Source: Puniceicoccales bacterium (GTDB taxonomy: Bacteria; Verrucomicrobiota; Verrucomicrobiia; Opitutales; JAIRLM01). From it: a DNA stretch of 32,000 nt. Every line of letters starts with the position of its first letter. Position 1 is the first letter of the stretch. A model generated the notes under the pieces. The model saw only the letters and a list, made by a program, of their open reading frames with translations. It searched no databases and was not told where the DNA came from. The DNA lies in the NCBI GenBank assembly GCA_031268795.1, contig JAIRWT010000010.1, positions 7,197-39,196 on the forward strand, written 5' to 3'. The position numbers were made by a program, and so were the translations under genes. Of the stretch, positions 4,670 through 30,858 are shown piece by piece.

Positions 4670-6886
4670 ATGCAAACGGCAACCGCGTCCCAAACTTCCC
4701 TCAGCCCGGTGTTGGATCCTTCGGATGGGAGCACCCAACTGGAAAGTCGGAATTTGCAAAAAATTAACGCCCAACAAACTAATGTTTTACCTAAAGGAAG
4801 TAAATATATTACCCCAATCGTCATAATTGGCATCGTCGCCACGATTGTACTTGTGACCGCTACTATTTTTTTCGCGCCTGGCGTACTGGCAATATTTTTG
4901 ACGTTTGCAGCGGTATTGCACGGAGGAATTTTGGGCGTTGTATTGCTGGGCGTGGCGGCGGGAACCGCATCCATTTTGGTCGGCGGACTGGTGACATTTA
5001 CCGTTGCAAAACTTATTCTATGGTTGGTATGCAAGCCAAATACGCCCGAGAATCCAACGGTGCATGTAGTCGAACAATCGGATGATCAACCGGAAACATC
5101 TGAAACTCCTCACCCGGAACAAGCAACAGTGGAGCTGCCGCAACCCGGCACGCCACCAGACGCAGACGCACCACAATCTGAAAAACCATATGCCGGTGCT
5201 GGCACTGAAATGCCAGAAACACAACAAATGTCTGTAGTACCACAACACTTAAGGGGCAGGAATATCGGCAGCGACGACATAGCAGTTTACGGACAAGCGA
5301 TGTGCGCACTGACACAAGCATTTAGCGGACAAGGAAGTATAAAACTTAAACCAGTCCCAAGCAAGCCGGAAAGAAGTCCGTCAAGCCCGCAGTCACTGGA
5401 AGAAACTCGGCAGAAGGTGGCGGACGACAGTTTTGGCGGCACTATACCGGATCAGAAAACTGAACCAGTTAAATATGCCGCATTCGCCGCGCAAGTCAAG
5501 CTTGTGACTGCCAAAGCCCGCCAAAGCAGTGGAAGCGATAGTACAGAGGTAGAGTTTGTTGCCCTGACAGAAAGAAAAAGGTCGCAAGAAATTAGTGAGG
5601 CTGCAGAAAGAGTAGCCGACACAAAAAAAATGCAGCGTCTTGCGGACGAAATAACCGCCAGGGGCACAGATGGCGATGCATTGCTTGCGCGGATAGAAGA
5701 ATTGGATCAGTTGACTGTGCTGGAAACGAAAGCCAAAGAAGCACGCACATGGGAAGAAGGTGGCCAAAAGCTAACAGCGCGAATGCAAGATTTTGGTACG
5801 GCCGATCCGGCCAGGATTGCATCACTCGTGGAAGCATCTGGGGCTACACTTCAAACTTACAATTCATCTAGTGGTACTTTAAGCGGACATGATGCGGCGA
5901 TTGCGGCCCTCTGCCGCGATATCGAATCCGTTAAGGGCGCCATTGCCTCACTACCTCATCTAATTACTAGGGCAGAAATTGCATTTACTCAAGGTGGATA
6001 TATTTCTCAAGACTATCCAGAGATTAATGGATTACTTAGTAAATTGAACAATGTGGAAGCACTTCTCGATTTCGCGCAATTTACTCCACAAATTATAGCT
6101 CGTTGCAATCTGGAGATTGAAAGATTACCTTACAAGGTATCTACAACTTTCCGAGATTTGGCTACTTGCATTACTAATGCACGCGAGAATAGTGCACGCT
6201 TCAACCAGGCGCATAATGATGCTCAGAATTTGTTTGGCATATTGCTAAAAGCTGATGATCCCAGAGCGGCAATGCTCGCGCTTCGGAAATTGTCGATTGA
6301 CGTGCAAGAGCACGAAAAACGTGCACCGCACAAAGCTCTGGGCACTTTAGAGGCGGAAATTGCGGAATTAAAAGAAGTATTAGGTGGTGACGAGGGGGCC
6401 AGCAACTTGCGAGCATTACTTACTGACCTTCATTGTCGGAGTGATGCAATAGGTCGTCAGTCGATTAGGCAATTATTGGCCGAAATTGAAAGAATGTCAA
6501 AAAGGTCAGCTTTGCCGGAACCAGTCGAAATTCTTTCACCGGTGACCATCACTGAAGAACAAAAGAAGCAAATGGCGTTGCTGGAGAGGGCGAAGCAAGT
6601 TGATCTTAACGGCATTAGCATAGATGGCCTCAATGAAGACCTTGACTCTGACGAAATTGACAACTACACAGAAATTGTTTCCTTACTACTTAACCTGGCC
6701 AAGACCGGCCAGTTGCCACTAACTAATGAAACACTCGAAAATAATAAACGTTTAGCCAATTTGTTAGCGGATACCTGCCCCGATGATGTTCCCCATGAAG
6801 TACTTCTTCCGCGATTAAATGCGGCAATTAATGGTGCAAACGAAACACTTGTGGCGAAGGCGATTTTCGATGGCCAGCCTTTTTGA
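4670..6886 (+). CDS. Orphan membrane protein with a hydrophobic hairpin block, a Pro/Glu-rich linker and a long helical domain (Inc-like architecture)
   Basis: 738-aa uninterrupted ORF with an ATG start. Residues 1-46 are hydrophilic. Residues 47-121 are continuous Gly/Ala/Ile/Val-rich hydrophobic sequence (PIVIIGIVATIVLVTATIFFAPGVLAIFLTFAAVLHGGILGVVLLGVAAGTASILVGGLVTFTVAKLILWLV). Residues 123-186 form a P/E/T/Q-rich low-complexity linker. The remaining roughly 550 aa are Ala/Glu/Leu-rich and predicted helical. I recognise no family. Confidence 0.6.
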   Translation: MQTATASQTSLSPVLDPSDGSTQLESRNLQKINAQQTNVLPKGSKYITPIVIIGIVATIVLVTATIFFAPGVLAIFLTFAAVLHGGILGVVLLGVAAGTASILVGGLVTFTVAKLILWLVCKPNTPENPTVHVVEQSDDQPETSETPHPEQATVELPQPGTPPDADAPQSEKPYAGAGTEMPETQQMSVVPQHLRGRNIGSDDIAVYGQAMCALTQAFSGQGSIKLKPVPSKPERSPSSPQSLEETRQKVADDSFGGTIPDQKTEPVKYAAFAAQVKLVTAKARQSSGSDSTEVEFVALTERKRSQEISEAAERVADTKKMQRLADEITARGTDGDALLARIEELDQLTVLETKAKEARTWEEGGQKLTARMQDFGTADPARIASLVEASGATLQTYNSSSGTLSGHDAAIAALCRDIESVKGAIASLPHLITRAEIAFTQGGYISQDYPEINGLLSKLNNVEALLDFAQFTPQIIARCNLEIERLPYKVSTTFRDLATCITNARENSARFNQAHNDAQNLFGILLKADDPRAAMLALRKLSIDVQEHEKRAPHKALGTLEAEIAELKEVLGGDEGASNLRALLTDLHCRSDAIGRQSIRQLLAEIERMSKRSALPEPVEILSPVTITEEQKKQMALLERAKQVDLNGISIDGLNEDLDSDEIDNYTEIVSLLLNLAKTGQLPLTNETLENNKRLANLLADTCPDDVPHEVLLPRLNAAINGANETLVAKAIFDGQPF

Positions 6887-6946
6887 GTAAAAATCTTATT
6901 TCCCGAAGTTAATGCGCGACCGGCGTGCCAGTGCCTAACAAAAAAT

Positions 6947-6975
6947 TTGTCAAACACCTCCCATGCGGGTAATAA
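6947..6975 (+). promoter_or_regulatory. Candidate sigma70-like promoter (TTGTCA-17 nt-TAATAA) immediately upstream of the HIT gene
   Basis: TTGTCA lies at 6947-6952 and TAATAA at 6970-6975, with a 17-nt spacer. The -10 element ends 6 nt before the ATG at 6982, which would imply a leaderless or near-leaderless mRNA. This rests on the sequence pattern only. Confidence 0.25.
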
Positions 6976-29569: not shown

Positions 29570-29697
29570 GTTTCTATTAAATAAGCATTTCGCGCGCGTT
29601 GAAATTTTAATATATTGATTGTGAAGACATTACCGCAAAATATAATTCCGCACTCGGCAATCTCAGATTCTTAATTGAGGTTGGCCATCCTGGCGAT

Positions 29698-30858
29698 TTA
29701 TTCACTTGCAAATGCTTCGCATATAATTTCGGATGTGGTTGTTGCGTTCGAATGCGGCATGCGCACACGTCGTCCGTAAATGCCAGGACATTGATAACCG
29801 GTTATAACTGCCACCGGGAAATCGATAAAATCGGTAAATCTTTGTAGCAATGTTTGTTGTTCGGGTATGAGAAAATTGGTAACCCGATTGCTGTTTGCGC
29901 TCATCCGCTCACGCCCGATGCTTTGTTGCTGTACCGATCCGAGACCACAGGGGTTAAAGCAAAATGTATCACATCCATATTTTAAGCCAAGGAATTGCGC
30001 ATATATGCCATCAGTAAAGGCTCCAGTGATGGAAACGTTATCTCCGCAAACGGGCAAAATGCTTCGAAATGCTGCCTCAAATGCTGCCGTTCGAGAATCC
30101 ATCCAGGGGCAGGCGGCGGAGGCAAATGCCGTCATTCGTTTCGAATGTGCGCTCGTTATTCTTGGGGCGAGGTATGTATTATTATCGGCGTCCGTATAAA
30201 TCATGAAACTAATACCAAGATCTTCGTTATGAAGTTCATAGCCGGTAACGGAAATATTCTCATTGAGAATAATTTCTTCCGGCCCGGAGGCAGAACGAAA
30301 ACCTGCCGACAATAATTCTTCCCTTTGATTCATAAACTTGTCTGGCCAAATGCTTTCCGACCCGGCCGGAAGCCAATTGGGTAATGGCAATTCACATAAT
30401 GCGCTCGAAATTTGAATGCGCTCCTTTTCCTCAAGGAAATTTTGTCCACAAAAAGGTATTGGATTAACCATATAGCCTGTTTCCGCGAAGGTTCTGTCCG
30501 GGTTTTTGATGGCAATTCCATAGCCAATTATTGTTAGTGTAGTGGCCATCGCAAAAAGCCCAAAGCTAATGCCAAAGCCGATTGGTCCGAAAAAAATTGA
30601 CACACCTATTCCAATACACTTTAAAATGGGAATAACAATGCCACTAGTAACGCCGATACCGGTAAGTATCCAATTCGTAGCATCATGCGAAGTTCCCATT
30701 AGGGTTTTTAATCCCTGCATCAAATTCATAATGGGAATATATGCCGAAATTCCACGCGCATCCGTTGCTCCCATTTTAAGTTTTTCGTTAACCCGATCAG
30801 CTAATAAAGTGCGCTGGTCGGGTGTCGAATAGGAATGAACTGAAGGGTCAACGAACAC
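29698..30858 (-). CDS. Orphan membrane protein with a hydrophobic hairpin and an alpha/beta-hydrolase (lipase-3/DUF2974-like) domain whose nucleophile elbow is non-canonical
   Basis: 386-aa ORF. Residues 62-117 form the hairpin (NWILTGIGVTSGIVIPILKCIGIGVSIFFGPIGFGISFGLFAMATTLTIIGYGIAI). In the C-terminal domain, ISFMIYTDADNNTYLAPR ... NVSITGAFTDGIYAQFLGLKYGCDTFCFNPCGLG parallels the lipase pattern (strand, GHSxGG, helix, strand, xxPG), but GxSxG is replaced by GAFTDG. The gene lies 128 nt upstream of the OTU gene on the same strand. Confidence 0.5.
   Translation of the reverse strand: MFVDPSVHSYSTPDQRTLLADRVNEKLKMGATDARGISAYIPIMNLMQGLKTLMGTSHDATNWILTGIGVTSGIVIPILKCIGIGVSIFFGPIGFGISFGLFAMATTLTIIGYGIAIKNPDRTFAETGYMVNPIPFCGQNFLEEKERIQISSALCELPLPNWLPAGSESIWPDKFMNQREELLSAGFRSASGPEEIILNENISVTGYELHNEDLGISFMIYTDADNNTYLAPRITSAHSKRMTAFASAACPWMDSRTAAFEAAFRSILPVCGDNVSITGAFTDGIYAQFLGLKYGCDTFCFNPCGLGSVQQQSIGRERMSANSNRVTNFLIPEQQTLLQRFTDFIDFPVAVITGYQCPGIYGRRVRMPHSNATTTSEIICEAFASE

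Follow-up and report, generated by a model that had tools for sequence, protein, structure and literature searches.

The 32 kb window analysed here, which belongs to a metagenome-assembled genome (MAG) of a Puniceicoccales bacterium, harbours four open reading frames (ORF1 to ORF4, locus tags LBI34_02565, 02580, 02610 and 02680) whose products begin with a hydrophilic leader and a hydrophobic block and resemble in this respect the inclusion-membrane (Inc) proteins of chlamydiae. ORF1 (4670..6886, + strand) encodes 738 aa, ORF2 (9939..11741, +) 600 aa, ORF3 (17323..18777, −) 484 aa and ORF4 (29698..30858, −, GTG start) 386 aa. All four are gene calls of both NCBI PGAP and IMG (MDR1456915, -918, -924 and -935) on a contig of 115,411 bp and have the periodicity of coding sequence, G accounting for 0.30–0.37 at codon position 1 versus 0.15–0.20 at position 2; coordinates and translations agree with those given in the original prediction. 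In each protein a hydrophilic leader of 33–62 aa precedes a hydrophobic block of 52–76 aa with a Pro/Gly/Ser turn, and according to a Kyte-Doolittle analysis the blocks are without charge or broken by one Lys. Positive residues border both ends of every block. By inspection, without a signal-peptide predictor, no Sec signal is apparent, because the blocks begin at least 33 aa in and far exceed the length of a Sec h-region, and no lipobox is found near any of the four N-termini. A signal-free leader with a single hydrophobic block had been proposed for all four and was borne out by inspection and hydropathy. The same holds for the proposal that the C-terminal domains are mutually unrelated, as an all-vs-all BLASTP of the four proteins gave no relation except compositional matches in the hydrophobic region (E>=0.1). 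Pfam and NCBIfam scans gave no significant match for any of the four, and no 8-mer is common to at least three of the five regions upstream of the four ORFs and of a neighbouring 831-aa orphan described below.

The hydrophobic domain of Inc proteins has been defined as two transmembrane (TM) helices of 15–32 aa with an uncharged, P/G/S/T/N-rich loop of less than 30 aa (Dehoux 2011, PMC3048545). This definition applies to ORF2 (34–55/PISS/59–80), ORF3 (35–61/GP/64–86) and ORF4 (63–90/GP/93–117) according to Kyte-Doolittle hydropathy and, for ORF2, also according to the AlphaFold2 helices. The Inc-like bilobed signature that had been claimed for the whole set thus fits these three, while ORF1 is three-lobed.

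To find out how common such proteins are we used a hairpin filter (a single Kyte-Doolittle block of 40–95 aa starting at aa 25–150, no further TM segment and 100 aa or more behind the block) and a background of 82 loci fetched through MreB, which comprise 1.36 Mb and 911 ORF-level genes, mostly from other Opitutae. The filter was passed by 4/21 window genes and by 9/911 background genes (~19% vs ~1%, Fisher p=1.2e-4), with the window picked post hoc and the background loci being syntenic around mreB; read with this scope, the number agrees with the earlier remark that four hairpin genes in 32 kb are striking. The nine background matches all lie at the same position and on the same strand downstream of mreB, and the three of them tested by Pfam are DUF58 (PF01882), the only family in these loci passing the filter (3/9 tested). 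Hairpin-anchored proteins in other Opitutae are therefore rare, conserved and annotated, and none of the four ORFs matches DUF58 at E<=1. At least four further unannotated hairpin proteins were found in ~140 kb of loci from sibling MAGs, at L086 8127–9644, where the gene adjoins an ORF2-family member, L088 9524–11281, L092 15718–17430 and L087 16962–17546.

Two further properties of the four genes were compared. Their GC content at third codon positions (GC3) is 0.403–0.411 and represents the four lowest values of 23 genes, the others showing 0.44–0.55 (rank probability 1.1e-4), and their match to core codon usage is below that of the core genes. The low GC3 fits fast-evolving or later-acquired genes. 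We also compared the hydrophobicity of the TM segments as the minimum sum over windows of 12–17 aa, a crude estimate that has no position or length terms and is not the dGpred algorithm. On this scale ORF4 (-0.52), ORF2 (-0.73) and ORF3 (-1.94) are less hydrophobic than the membrane proteins of the window (-2.7 to -3.8, with rodA at -3.0 and the 7TM-HD protein at -2.7) and the DUF58 anchors (-3.6 to -5.4), whereas ORF1 reaches -3.42. Secreted TM effectors have been described to show a TM hydrophobicity just below the range that leads to targeting by the signal recognition particle (SRP) (Krampen 2018, PMC6110835). The values for ORF2, ORF3 and ORF4 go in this same direction and ORF1 departs from the pattern.

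ORF2 is the only one of the four for which a family could be compiled. Its leader (aa 1–33) precedes a hairpin at aa 34–80 (nt 10038–10178), with the uncharged run extending to aa 87 (nt 10199), TM segments at ~34–55 and 59–80 and the turn P-I-S-S; AlphaFold2 predicts helices at 16–53 and 56–78. A low-complexity linker and an alpha+beta domain (aa ~134–555) follow, and the AlphaFold2 model shows a pLDDT of 80–95 across most of residues 134–555. A word-index search of 5.8 billion proteins returned the query alone, and HMMER, run over the whole set of 1.84 billion representatives, gave only 11 relatives. Those with a MAG name all come from sibling Puniceicoccales (LBF26, LBB26, LBS68, LBD72), the rest from JGI or Logan contigs, and a paralog (LBI34_01820) is present in the same MAG. 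Nearly all full-length members retain the leader and a hydrophobic block of 50–60 aa, and in one subfamily the leader motif FDPYKRIP is conserved. A profile search with the family alignment A1 gave nothing beyond the query among up to 8000 candidates, a list probably crowded by matches to other words. A scan of JGI metagenomes with the subfamily alignment found no relatives either, but did not return the known JGI family members, so that termite samples are evidently lacking there.

In the alignment of 11 sequences Q205, H510 (nt 11466–11468) and N513 are invariant and C211 (nt 10569–10571) is nearly so; D570 is a further conserved residue. The family signature Q-x5-C...H has the Gln six residues before the Cys, and in the model C211 begins a helix and H510 a beta-strand. 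We take this arrangement with the following Asn/Asp to resemble papain-type (clan CA) enzymes. A Foldseek search of the model against the PDB gave nothing significant (best E=0.47), and neither Pfam on all family members nor the profile of alignment A1 against PDB sequences resulted in a match. From the 'calpain-like' domain that had been assigned to ORF2 there remains at best the papain-type motif, and a protease function is a motif-level hypothesis on an unrecognised fold. One family member, P0028 (LBS68_02120; L088 921–2471), carries Gly in place of the conserved Cys (RNGFAYSH) and is therefore probably without catalytic activity; der and then a run of six genes without Pfam match come after it. 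A relative of the ORF2 domain of 812 aa without hairpin and with a different N-terminal region of 460 aa is encoded at L083 10001–12439 (+) in Logan ERR14127401, on a contig that also encodes a DUF3638 protein of 3516 aa. This relative shows the ORF2 domain to be modular, and the domain may occur outside the termite lineage.

The genomic position of ORF2 allowed us to follow its evolution. It is followed by oppA (−), efp (+, 13438–13995), mreB (+) and the gene for a TPR/LysM protein (−) at 11745..15937, and the same five-gene block with an ORF2 ortholog is found in locus L090 from the sibling MAG LBB26, which was fetched through MreB and is thus unbiased with respect to hairpins. Compared to LBB26, MreB shows 96% identity, OppA 77%, the TPR/LysM protein 76% and, in locus L092, LpxB 77% and ThyA 81%, whereas the whole ORF2 protein shows 39.8%. 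ORF2 has thus been passed on vertically within the lineage while evolving much faster than its neighbours. Within the protein the hairpin is best conserved (56%), ahead of the catalytic-type domain (40%), the linker (25%) and the leader (20%), which points to the hairpin as the segment under the strongest constraint. The efp gene within the block is intact and its product 90% identical to the EF-P of the sibling MAG; the mechanical ORF list had over-extended it (13261–13995) into an overlap with the 5' end of the oppA ORF.

ORF3 consists of a leader (aa 1–34), a hairpin at aa 35–86 (nt 18520–18675) with the turn G62-P63 and a soluble part, which at aa ~115–480 is predicted to form an irregular, leucine-rich-repeat (LRR)-like alpha/beta solenoid. 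Pfam LRR_4 is reached with E=0.0013 and 19.4 bits, under the cut-off of 27. The single-sequence model of the soluble part (pLDDT 65, pTM 0.65) shows alternating strands and helices, and Foldseek ranks highest NLRP3, FBXL3, NLRP5, NLRC4 and NOD2, all of which contain LRR, although these are weak matches of a medium-confidence model (prob 0.94–1.0, E 1e-3 to 1e-2, TM score 0.2–0.36). An LRR domain of NLR/FBXL type, as had been proposed for ORF3, is therefore plausible, the sub-threshold LRR_4 match and the Foldseek matches speaking for it, but the assignment is not secure. The protein is a singleton at 90% identity and has no significant Pfam, NCBIfam or PDB-sequence match and no relative in the ~140 kb of sibling loci or among JGI metagenome contigs, a collection evidently without termite samples.

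ORF4 has the longest leader (aa 1–62), followed by a Gly-rich hairpin at aa 63–117 (nt 30508–30672) with one Lys and the turn G91-P92 and by a C-terminal domain of ~270 aa. Its GC3 of 0.403 is the minimum of the window. The word-index search of 5.8 billion proteins or clusters returned only ORF4 itself, and there is no Pfam, NCBIfam or PDB-sequence match and no relative in the ~140 kb of sibling loci. The 'hydrolase-like' character once assigned to this domain found no support in these searches, and a GxSxG nucleophile elbow is absent from the sequence, the nearest look-alike ITGAFTDG having Phe at the Ser position. ORF4 adjoins an orphan of 831 aa (LBI34_02675, 27074..29569, −), which lacks an N-terminal hairpin and is described here as context outside the hairpin set. 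Over its C-terminal ~290 aa it shows homology to LBF26_00005 (P0062) from a sibling MAG, and both proteins share the OTU-protease-like motifs NCLFNA and GGxxD(V/I)...PVYV. There is no PDB match, and Pfam OTU reaches only E=0.13, in the homolog; as the evidence is at the level of motifs, we did not adopt an assignment as OTU cysteine protease. The 3' end of the orphan pair (27074–30858) lies ~300 bp from the genes for tRNA-Arg(acg) and tRNA-Ala(ggc) (26613..26771, +), an island-like position; a listed ORF at 26677–27084 is a spurious reading across these tRNA genes. The four genes had been described as inserted singly between core genes. This is not the case for ORF4 with its orphan neighbour, and since only mreB order is shared with more distant relatives an insertion between core genes cannot be demonstrated.

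ORF1 has the most hydrophobic block of the four. Its S/T/Q-rich leader (aa 1–45) is followed by the three-lobed block of 76 aa at aa 46–121 (nt 4805–5032), in which the uncharged run covers aa 46–113 and, with one Lys, extends to 121; with turns at P70-G71 and T99-A-S101 it fits helices of 23, 26 and 20 aa. A Pro/Glu/Thr-rich linker (KPNTPENP...PQPGTPPDADAP) reaches to ~aa 200, and the C-terminal region is Ala/Glu/Leu-rich and, by composition, probably helical. GC3 is 0.411. ORF1 forms a singleton cluster at 90% identity, without Pfam, NCBIfam or PDB-sequence match and without a relative in the ~140 kb of sibling loci. Counting S/T/P/Q in the first 25 aa of the leaders resulted in 64% for ORF1 and 20–36% for the other three. 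Taken over the set, the label 'orphan' no longer holds for ORF2 with its family, whereas no relatives were detected for ORF1, ORF3 and ORF4. The large-database searches indicate a restricted distribution for ORF2 and ORF4; ORF1 and ORF3 were searched less deeply. Homologues in free-living bacteria were not found in these searches: all named relatives of ORF2 are from sibling MAGs, ORF4 matched only itself in the word index, and ORF1 and ORF3 are singletons at 90% identity without family or PDB match.

The window has 47% GC and a coding share of ~90%. Its core genes include lpxB, thyA, rpsA and the genes for a HIT protein and a 7TM-HD receptor, an oppA-like SBP_5 gene, efp (13438–13995), mreB, the TPR/LysM gene and murG, as well as genes for UPF0102 and an [FeFe]-hydrogenase-like protein, trmD, rodA, the RNase G gene and der, along with three tRNA genes. 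Eight ORFs, the four hairpin ORFs among them, have no significant Pfam or NCBIfam match and lie among these core genes. Two of the others are orphans of 153 and 217 aa in divergent orientation (21835–22296, −, and 22426–23079, +) near tRNA-Arg(tct) at 23368–23443; their C-terminal halves are Glu/Lys/Ala-rich and helical by eye, and no Pfam or NCBIfam match was found for them except a sub-threshold alanine-zipper (E 0.02–0.06) for the 153-aa ORF. A single-TM protein of 214 aa is encoded in the lpxB–thyA interval of both the window (1256–1900, +) and L092 (2383–3015, +) with 70% identity and is, in contrast to the fast-evolving ORF2, a membrane protein conserved in the lineage. In comparison with more distant loci mreB alone is in common, and in sibling MAGs with 94–96% identical MreB the gene order breaks immediately beyond short blocks, which suggests extensive genome rearrangement in the lineage.

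MreB was also used to place the source organism, a MAG named Puniceicoccales bacterium at NCBI. The best match of the window MreB is the Puniceicoccales MAG Nm470_bin87 with 82% identity, while the remaining fetched loci, mostly from other Opitutae, show 59–72%. MreB sequences with at least 90% identity are found in a number of other 'Puniceicoccales' MAGs as well as in JGI-sample and SRA-run contigs. These values led us to reject a chlamydial source, and they identify the organism as a member of the Planctomycetes–Verrucomicrobia–Chlamydiae (PVC) group within Verrucomicrobiota (Opitutales/Puniceicoccales), in line with the original prediction of a lineage possibly related to PVC bacteria and distinct from classical Chlamydiaceae. 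Among the MAGs of Mies et al. 2024, Nm470 denotes the gut of Neotermes meruensis, a lower termite, and it is from a gut of this species that the nearest GTDB genome comes. LL51 and UBA9783, Opitutales families of termite guts, have reduced genomes and nucleotide transporters, are regarded as putative flagellate endosymbionts and are related to the intranuclear Ca. Nucleococcus (Mies et al. 2024). The 'Nucleococcus cluster' has been defined as nuclear and cytoplasmic protist endosymbionts (Williams et al. 2021).

Genes of a type III secretion system (T3SS) are present in this lineage. In L087, a locus of the sibling MAG LBD72 that was fetched via an ORF2-family member, sctS-sctT-sctU (716–2917, −, with sctU at 716–1837) are located ~7 kb from that member and near ATP-synthase genes. 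According to the NCBIfam models SctU reaches 412 bits with the injectisome model (cut-off 358) and 308 with FlhB (349), SctT 196 (163) and 123 with FliR (169), and SctS 94 (76.5) and 76 with FliQ (89). All three pass the injectisome cut-offs and fail the flagellar ones, and we therefore assign them to an injectisome and not to a flagellum. SctU was found in four sibling MAGs, and in L092 sctS-sctT-sctU (8915–11116, +) stand isolated between serS and alaS and are followed by four small unannotated ORFs (78–132 aa) after sctU. In both loci the cluster is isolated and there is no sctR upstream. Outside Chlamydiae and Proteobacteria, non-flagellar T3SS have been found in Verrucomicrobia only (Abby and Rocha 2012). 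Clustered at 90% identity, SctU and SctS group with proteins from LBD72, LBF26 and LBB26 and also with MDR1457128 (SctU) and MDR1457126 (SctS), which are encoded on one contig of 134,788 bp, ~190 accessions beyond the window proteins (MDR1456912-35). These two have no Logan source, which they share with all LBI34 proteins examined and which distinguishes them from the named sibling-MAG members. From the contiguity of the accessions and this source pattern we consider it very probable that both belong to the MAG of the window. In MDR1457128, which scores above the SctU cut-off, the NPTH autocleavage site is intact, and the protein is 96% identical to SctU of LBB26, the same conservation as seen for MreB. 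Directly beside sctU, L087 carries a fragment (86–658, +) with a eukaryote-type USP/UCH domain (PF00443, E=4.6e-16); it is 85 bases away from the edge of the fetched locus and matches only part of the domain profile.

Chlamydial Inc proteins reside with their hairpin in a host membrane and point both termini toward the host cytosol. By analogy we propose that the four ORFs are candidates for T3SS-delivered, membrane-anchored effectors, Inc analogues and not homologues, a reading whose chances we judge to be about even. They would form a lineage-specific, rapidly diversifying set of candidates, with fast evolution seen for ORF2. The hydrophilic leader would serve as secretion and chaperone-binding signal, and the proteins would be exported unfolded by the injectisome-type T3SS of the lineage. 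The hairpin would then insert into a membrane of the host cell, which might be the symbiont-containing vacuole, the endoplasmic reticulum (ER) or the nuclear envelope. Both termini, along with the variable domain, would then face the host cytosol or nucleoplasm. The layout of leader, tight Pro/Gly-turn hairpin, low-complexity linker (ORF1, ORF2) and variable domain could serve such a purpose, the domain being helical-looking in ORF1, carrying a papain-type Cys/His signature in ORF2 and resembling LRR of NLR/FBXL type in ORF3. Hints toward functions directed at eukaryotes are the LRR-type match of ORF3, the USP/UCH domain beside sctU and the OTU-like motif in the 831-aa neighbour. Secretion, target membrane, catalysis and an intracellular life of this MAG are what we infer from the architecture and the lineage context.

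Several observations weigh against this proposal. ORF1 departs from the bilobed layout with its three lobes (47–69/PG/72–98/TAS/102–121), which would put its termini on opposite sides of the membrane, and with -3.4 it is as hydrophobic as bona fide inner-membrane proteins, as is L088_585 (-4.2). The leaders of ORF2 and ORF3 are by eye not notably Ser/Thr/Pro-rich. L081 and L082, two sibling loci around mreB that are unbiased for hairpins, contain no hairpin protein. As to secretion, which the original prediction had made a point to check, sctS, sctT and sctU exist in the lineage, but they are the only core T3SS genes visible in the fetched loci, and MDR1457126 and MDR1457128 were assigned to this MAG by accession contiguity and source pattern and not by locus tag. 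Host association, likewise raised there, is favoured by the phylum and by the relatives from lower-termite guts, and an intracellular lifestyle of the MAG itself is putative. Even in Chlamydia a bilobed domain is no guarantee of translocation (Dehoux 2011, PMC3048545).

The main rival is that the four are ordinary inner-membrane proteins inserted by SRP and YidC, in which an N-in/C-in hairpin tethers lineage-specific cytoplasmic domains, such as a protease, a repeat scaffold or a helical adaptor, and the T3SS, if functional, exports other, soluble substrates. We regard this as less likely, although the positive residues at both ends of the blocks are compatible with such a topology, free-living relatives possess hairpin anchors of like size as in DUF58, ORF1 and L088_585 match SRP-type substrates in hydrophobicity, some predicted chlamydial Incs remain in the bacterium (Dehoux 2011, PMC3048545) and secretion of the ORFs is itself a prediction. 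It would leave the enrichment from ~1% of background genes to ~19% of the window genes without a reason, as well as the divergence of ORF2 far above that of its neighbours and the lack of any ORF2 or ORF4 homologue beyond a single symbiont-like lineage. We also judge an LRR solenoid and a Pro-rich linker to be unusual for bacterial cytoplasmic domains, and on the crude scale the TM hydrophobicity of three of the four proteins is moderate. ORF1 taken by itself fits an inner-membrane or a TonB/TolA-like role best. If the proteins do stay in the inner membrane, they would still represent a lineage-specific gene family expansion, of modest interest.

The special position of ORF1 leads to a further reading, in which the set is a mixture of envelope proteins with a coincidental layout, ORF1 being a TonB/TolA-like protein that spans the periplasm and the others signal-anchored periplasmic or surface proteins. 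Three helices in ORF1 would indeed place its C-terminal domain outside the cytoplasm, the Pro/Glu-rich spacer with the long helical-looking region would suit such a role, its linker resembles TonB-type spacers, and the four proteins are mutually unrelated. Nevertheless we find this improbable, as there is no TonB_C, TolA or other Pfam/NCBIfam match, the even number of helices in ORF2, ORF3 and ORF4 argues for cytoplasmic rather than periplasmic domains and the hairpin recurs in many unrelated lineage-specific proteins. Chance ORFs or functionless remnants of decaying genes would explain why no homologue could be detected for three of the four and why GC3 and the match to core codon usage are below those of the core genes. 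ORFs of 386–738 codons are very unlikely to arise by chance at 47% GC, the periodicity is clear, two independent pipelines called the genes and ORF2 is conserved with its catalytic-type residues invariant across 11 sequences, so that an artefact is very hard to reconcile with the data. Among these readings we prefer T3SS-delivered, hairpin-anchored effectors.

Incs are central to the way in which chlamydiae build their intracellular niche, and Bannantine reportedly dealt with chlamydial Inc proteins in 2000. To our knowledge, neither a papain-like signature as in ORF2 nor NLR/FBXL-like LRR as in ORF3 is typical of Inc domains. Besides IncA-G several hundred Incs have been predicted, and they have been described as exclusive to the phylum Chlamydiae (Dehoux 2011, PMC3048545). 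Like them, the proteins described here combine a leader, a bilobed hairpin of 40–60+ aa, an uncharged P/G/S/T turn and a variable, often helical C-terminal domain, are little related to each other in sequence and are restricted to a lineage. Like the Inc-bearing chlamydiae the organism is a PVC member with injectisome genes, and as in Chlamydia the T3SS genes are scattered, with sctSTU apart from other T3SS genes. Incs account for 4–10% of chlamydial proteomes (Dehoux 2011, PMC3048545), compared to 4/21 genes in our post hoc window. Unlike Incs, the four show no sequence homology to any Inc family (no Pfam match to IncA or another Inc), come from Verrucomicrobiota, the sister phylum within PVC, and not from Chlamydiae, are known here from sequence alone and include the three-lobed ORF1. 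Given the missing homology and the non-chlamydial organism we classify them as Inc analogues and not as members of the Inc family.

They may also be compared with the TM effectors of other bacteria such as SseF/SseG of Salmonella, Tir of enteropathogenic E. coli (EPEC) and proteins of Legionella and Coxiella, which have 1–3 TM segments and a secretion signal (Krampen 2018, PMC6110835). Shared features are this layout, with the signal being putative in the four ORFs, the TM hydrophobicity of ORF2, ORF3 and ORF4 below that of resident inner-membrane proteins (crude estimate) and the presence of an injectisome in the lineage; unlike these effectors the four show no homology to SseF/SseG, Tir or others, no cognate chaperone gene was identified beside the ORFs, and ORF1 lies above the SRP-avoidance range. 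A two-helix hairpin at the N-terminus with a soluble domain behind it is also seen in DUF58 proteins, but in contrast to the four ORFs they are conserved and syntenic, carry a Pfam domain and have much more hydrophobic anchors (-3.6 to -5.4). With effectors of the clan CA cysteine-protease type ORF2 shares a Gln six residues before a helix-starting Cys, a strand-starting His and the following Asn/Asp, while its model has no PDB match by Foldseek (best E=0.47) and no profile matches. ORF3 resembles LRR effectors of eukaryote type in its solenoid model, with NLR and FBXL3 LRR domains as best matches, although this likeness is weak (E>=1e-3, TM score <=0.36, medium-confidence single-sequence model).

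In the library searched there was no paper on Inc-like proteins or T3SS effectors in these Opitutales. Hairpin effectors delivered by a T3SS are already known; new would be a non-homologous, diversified repertoire of them in Verrucomicrobiota. For the verrucomicrobial symbionts of termite flagellates, whose molecular biology is uncharacterised, the genes described here offer candidate effectors, among them a membrane-tethered protein with a Cys/His signature, a protein with NLR/FBXL-like LRR and the nearby USP- and OTU-like proteins. They also provide a test case for whether hairpin-anchored T3SS effectors represent a general answer to the demands of life inside cells and whether this trait is ancestral within PVC bacteria or convergent. 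Taking the proposal further, we tentatively suggest that Opitutales living as protist symbionts might deploy their own large and fast-evolving 'Inc-ome' of T3SS-injected hairpin effectors on the host membrane. If true, this repertoire, with its protease, LRR and deubiquitinase-type domains, would be the first of its kind outside Chlamydiae, and the pairing of a T3SS with hairpin effectors as a strategy would be either convergent or of ancient, PVC-wide origin.

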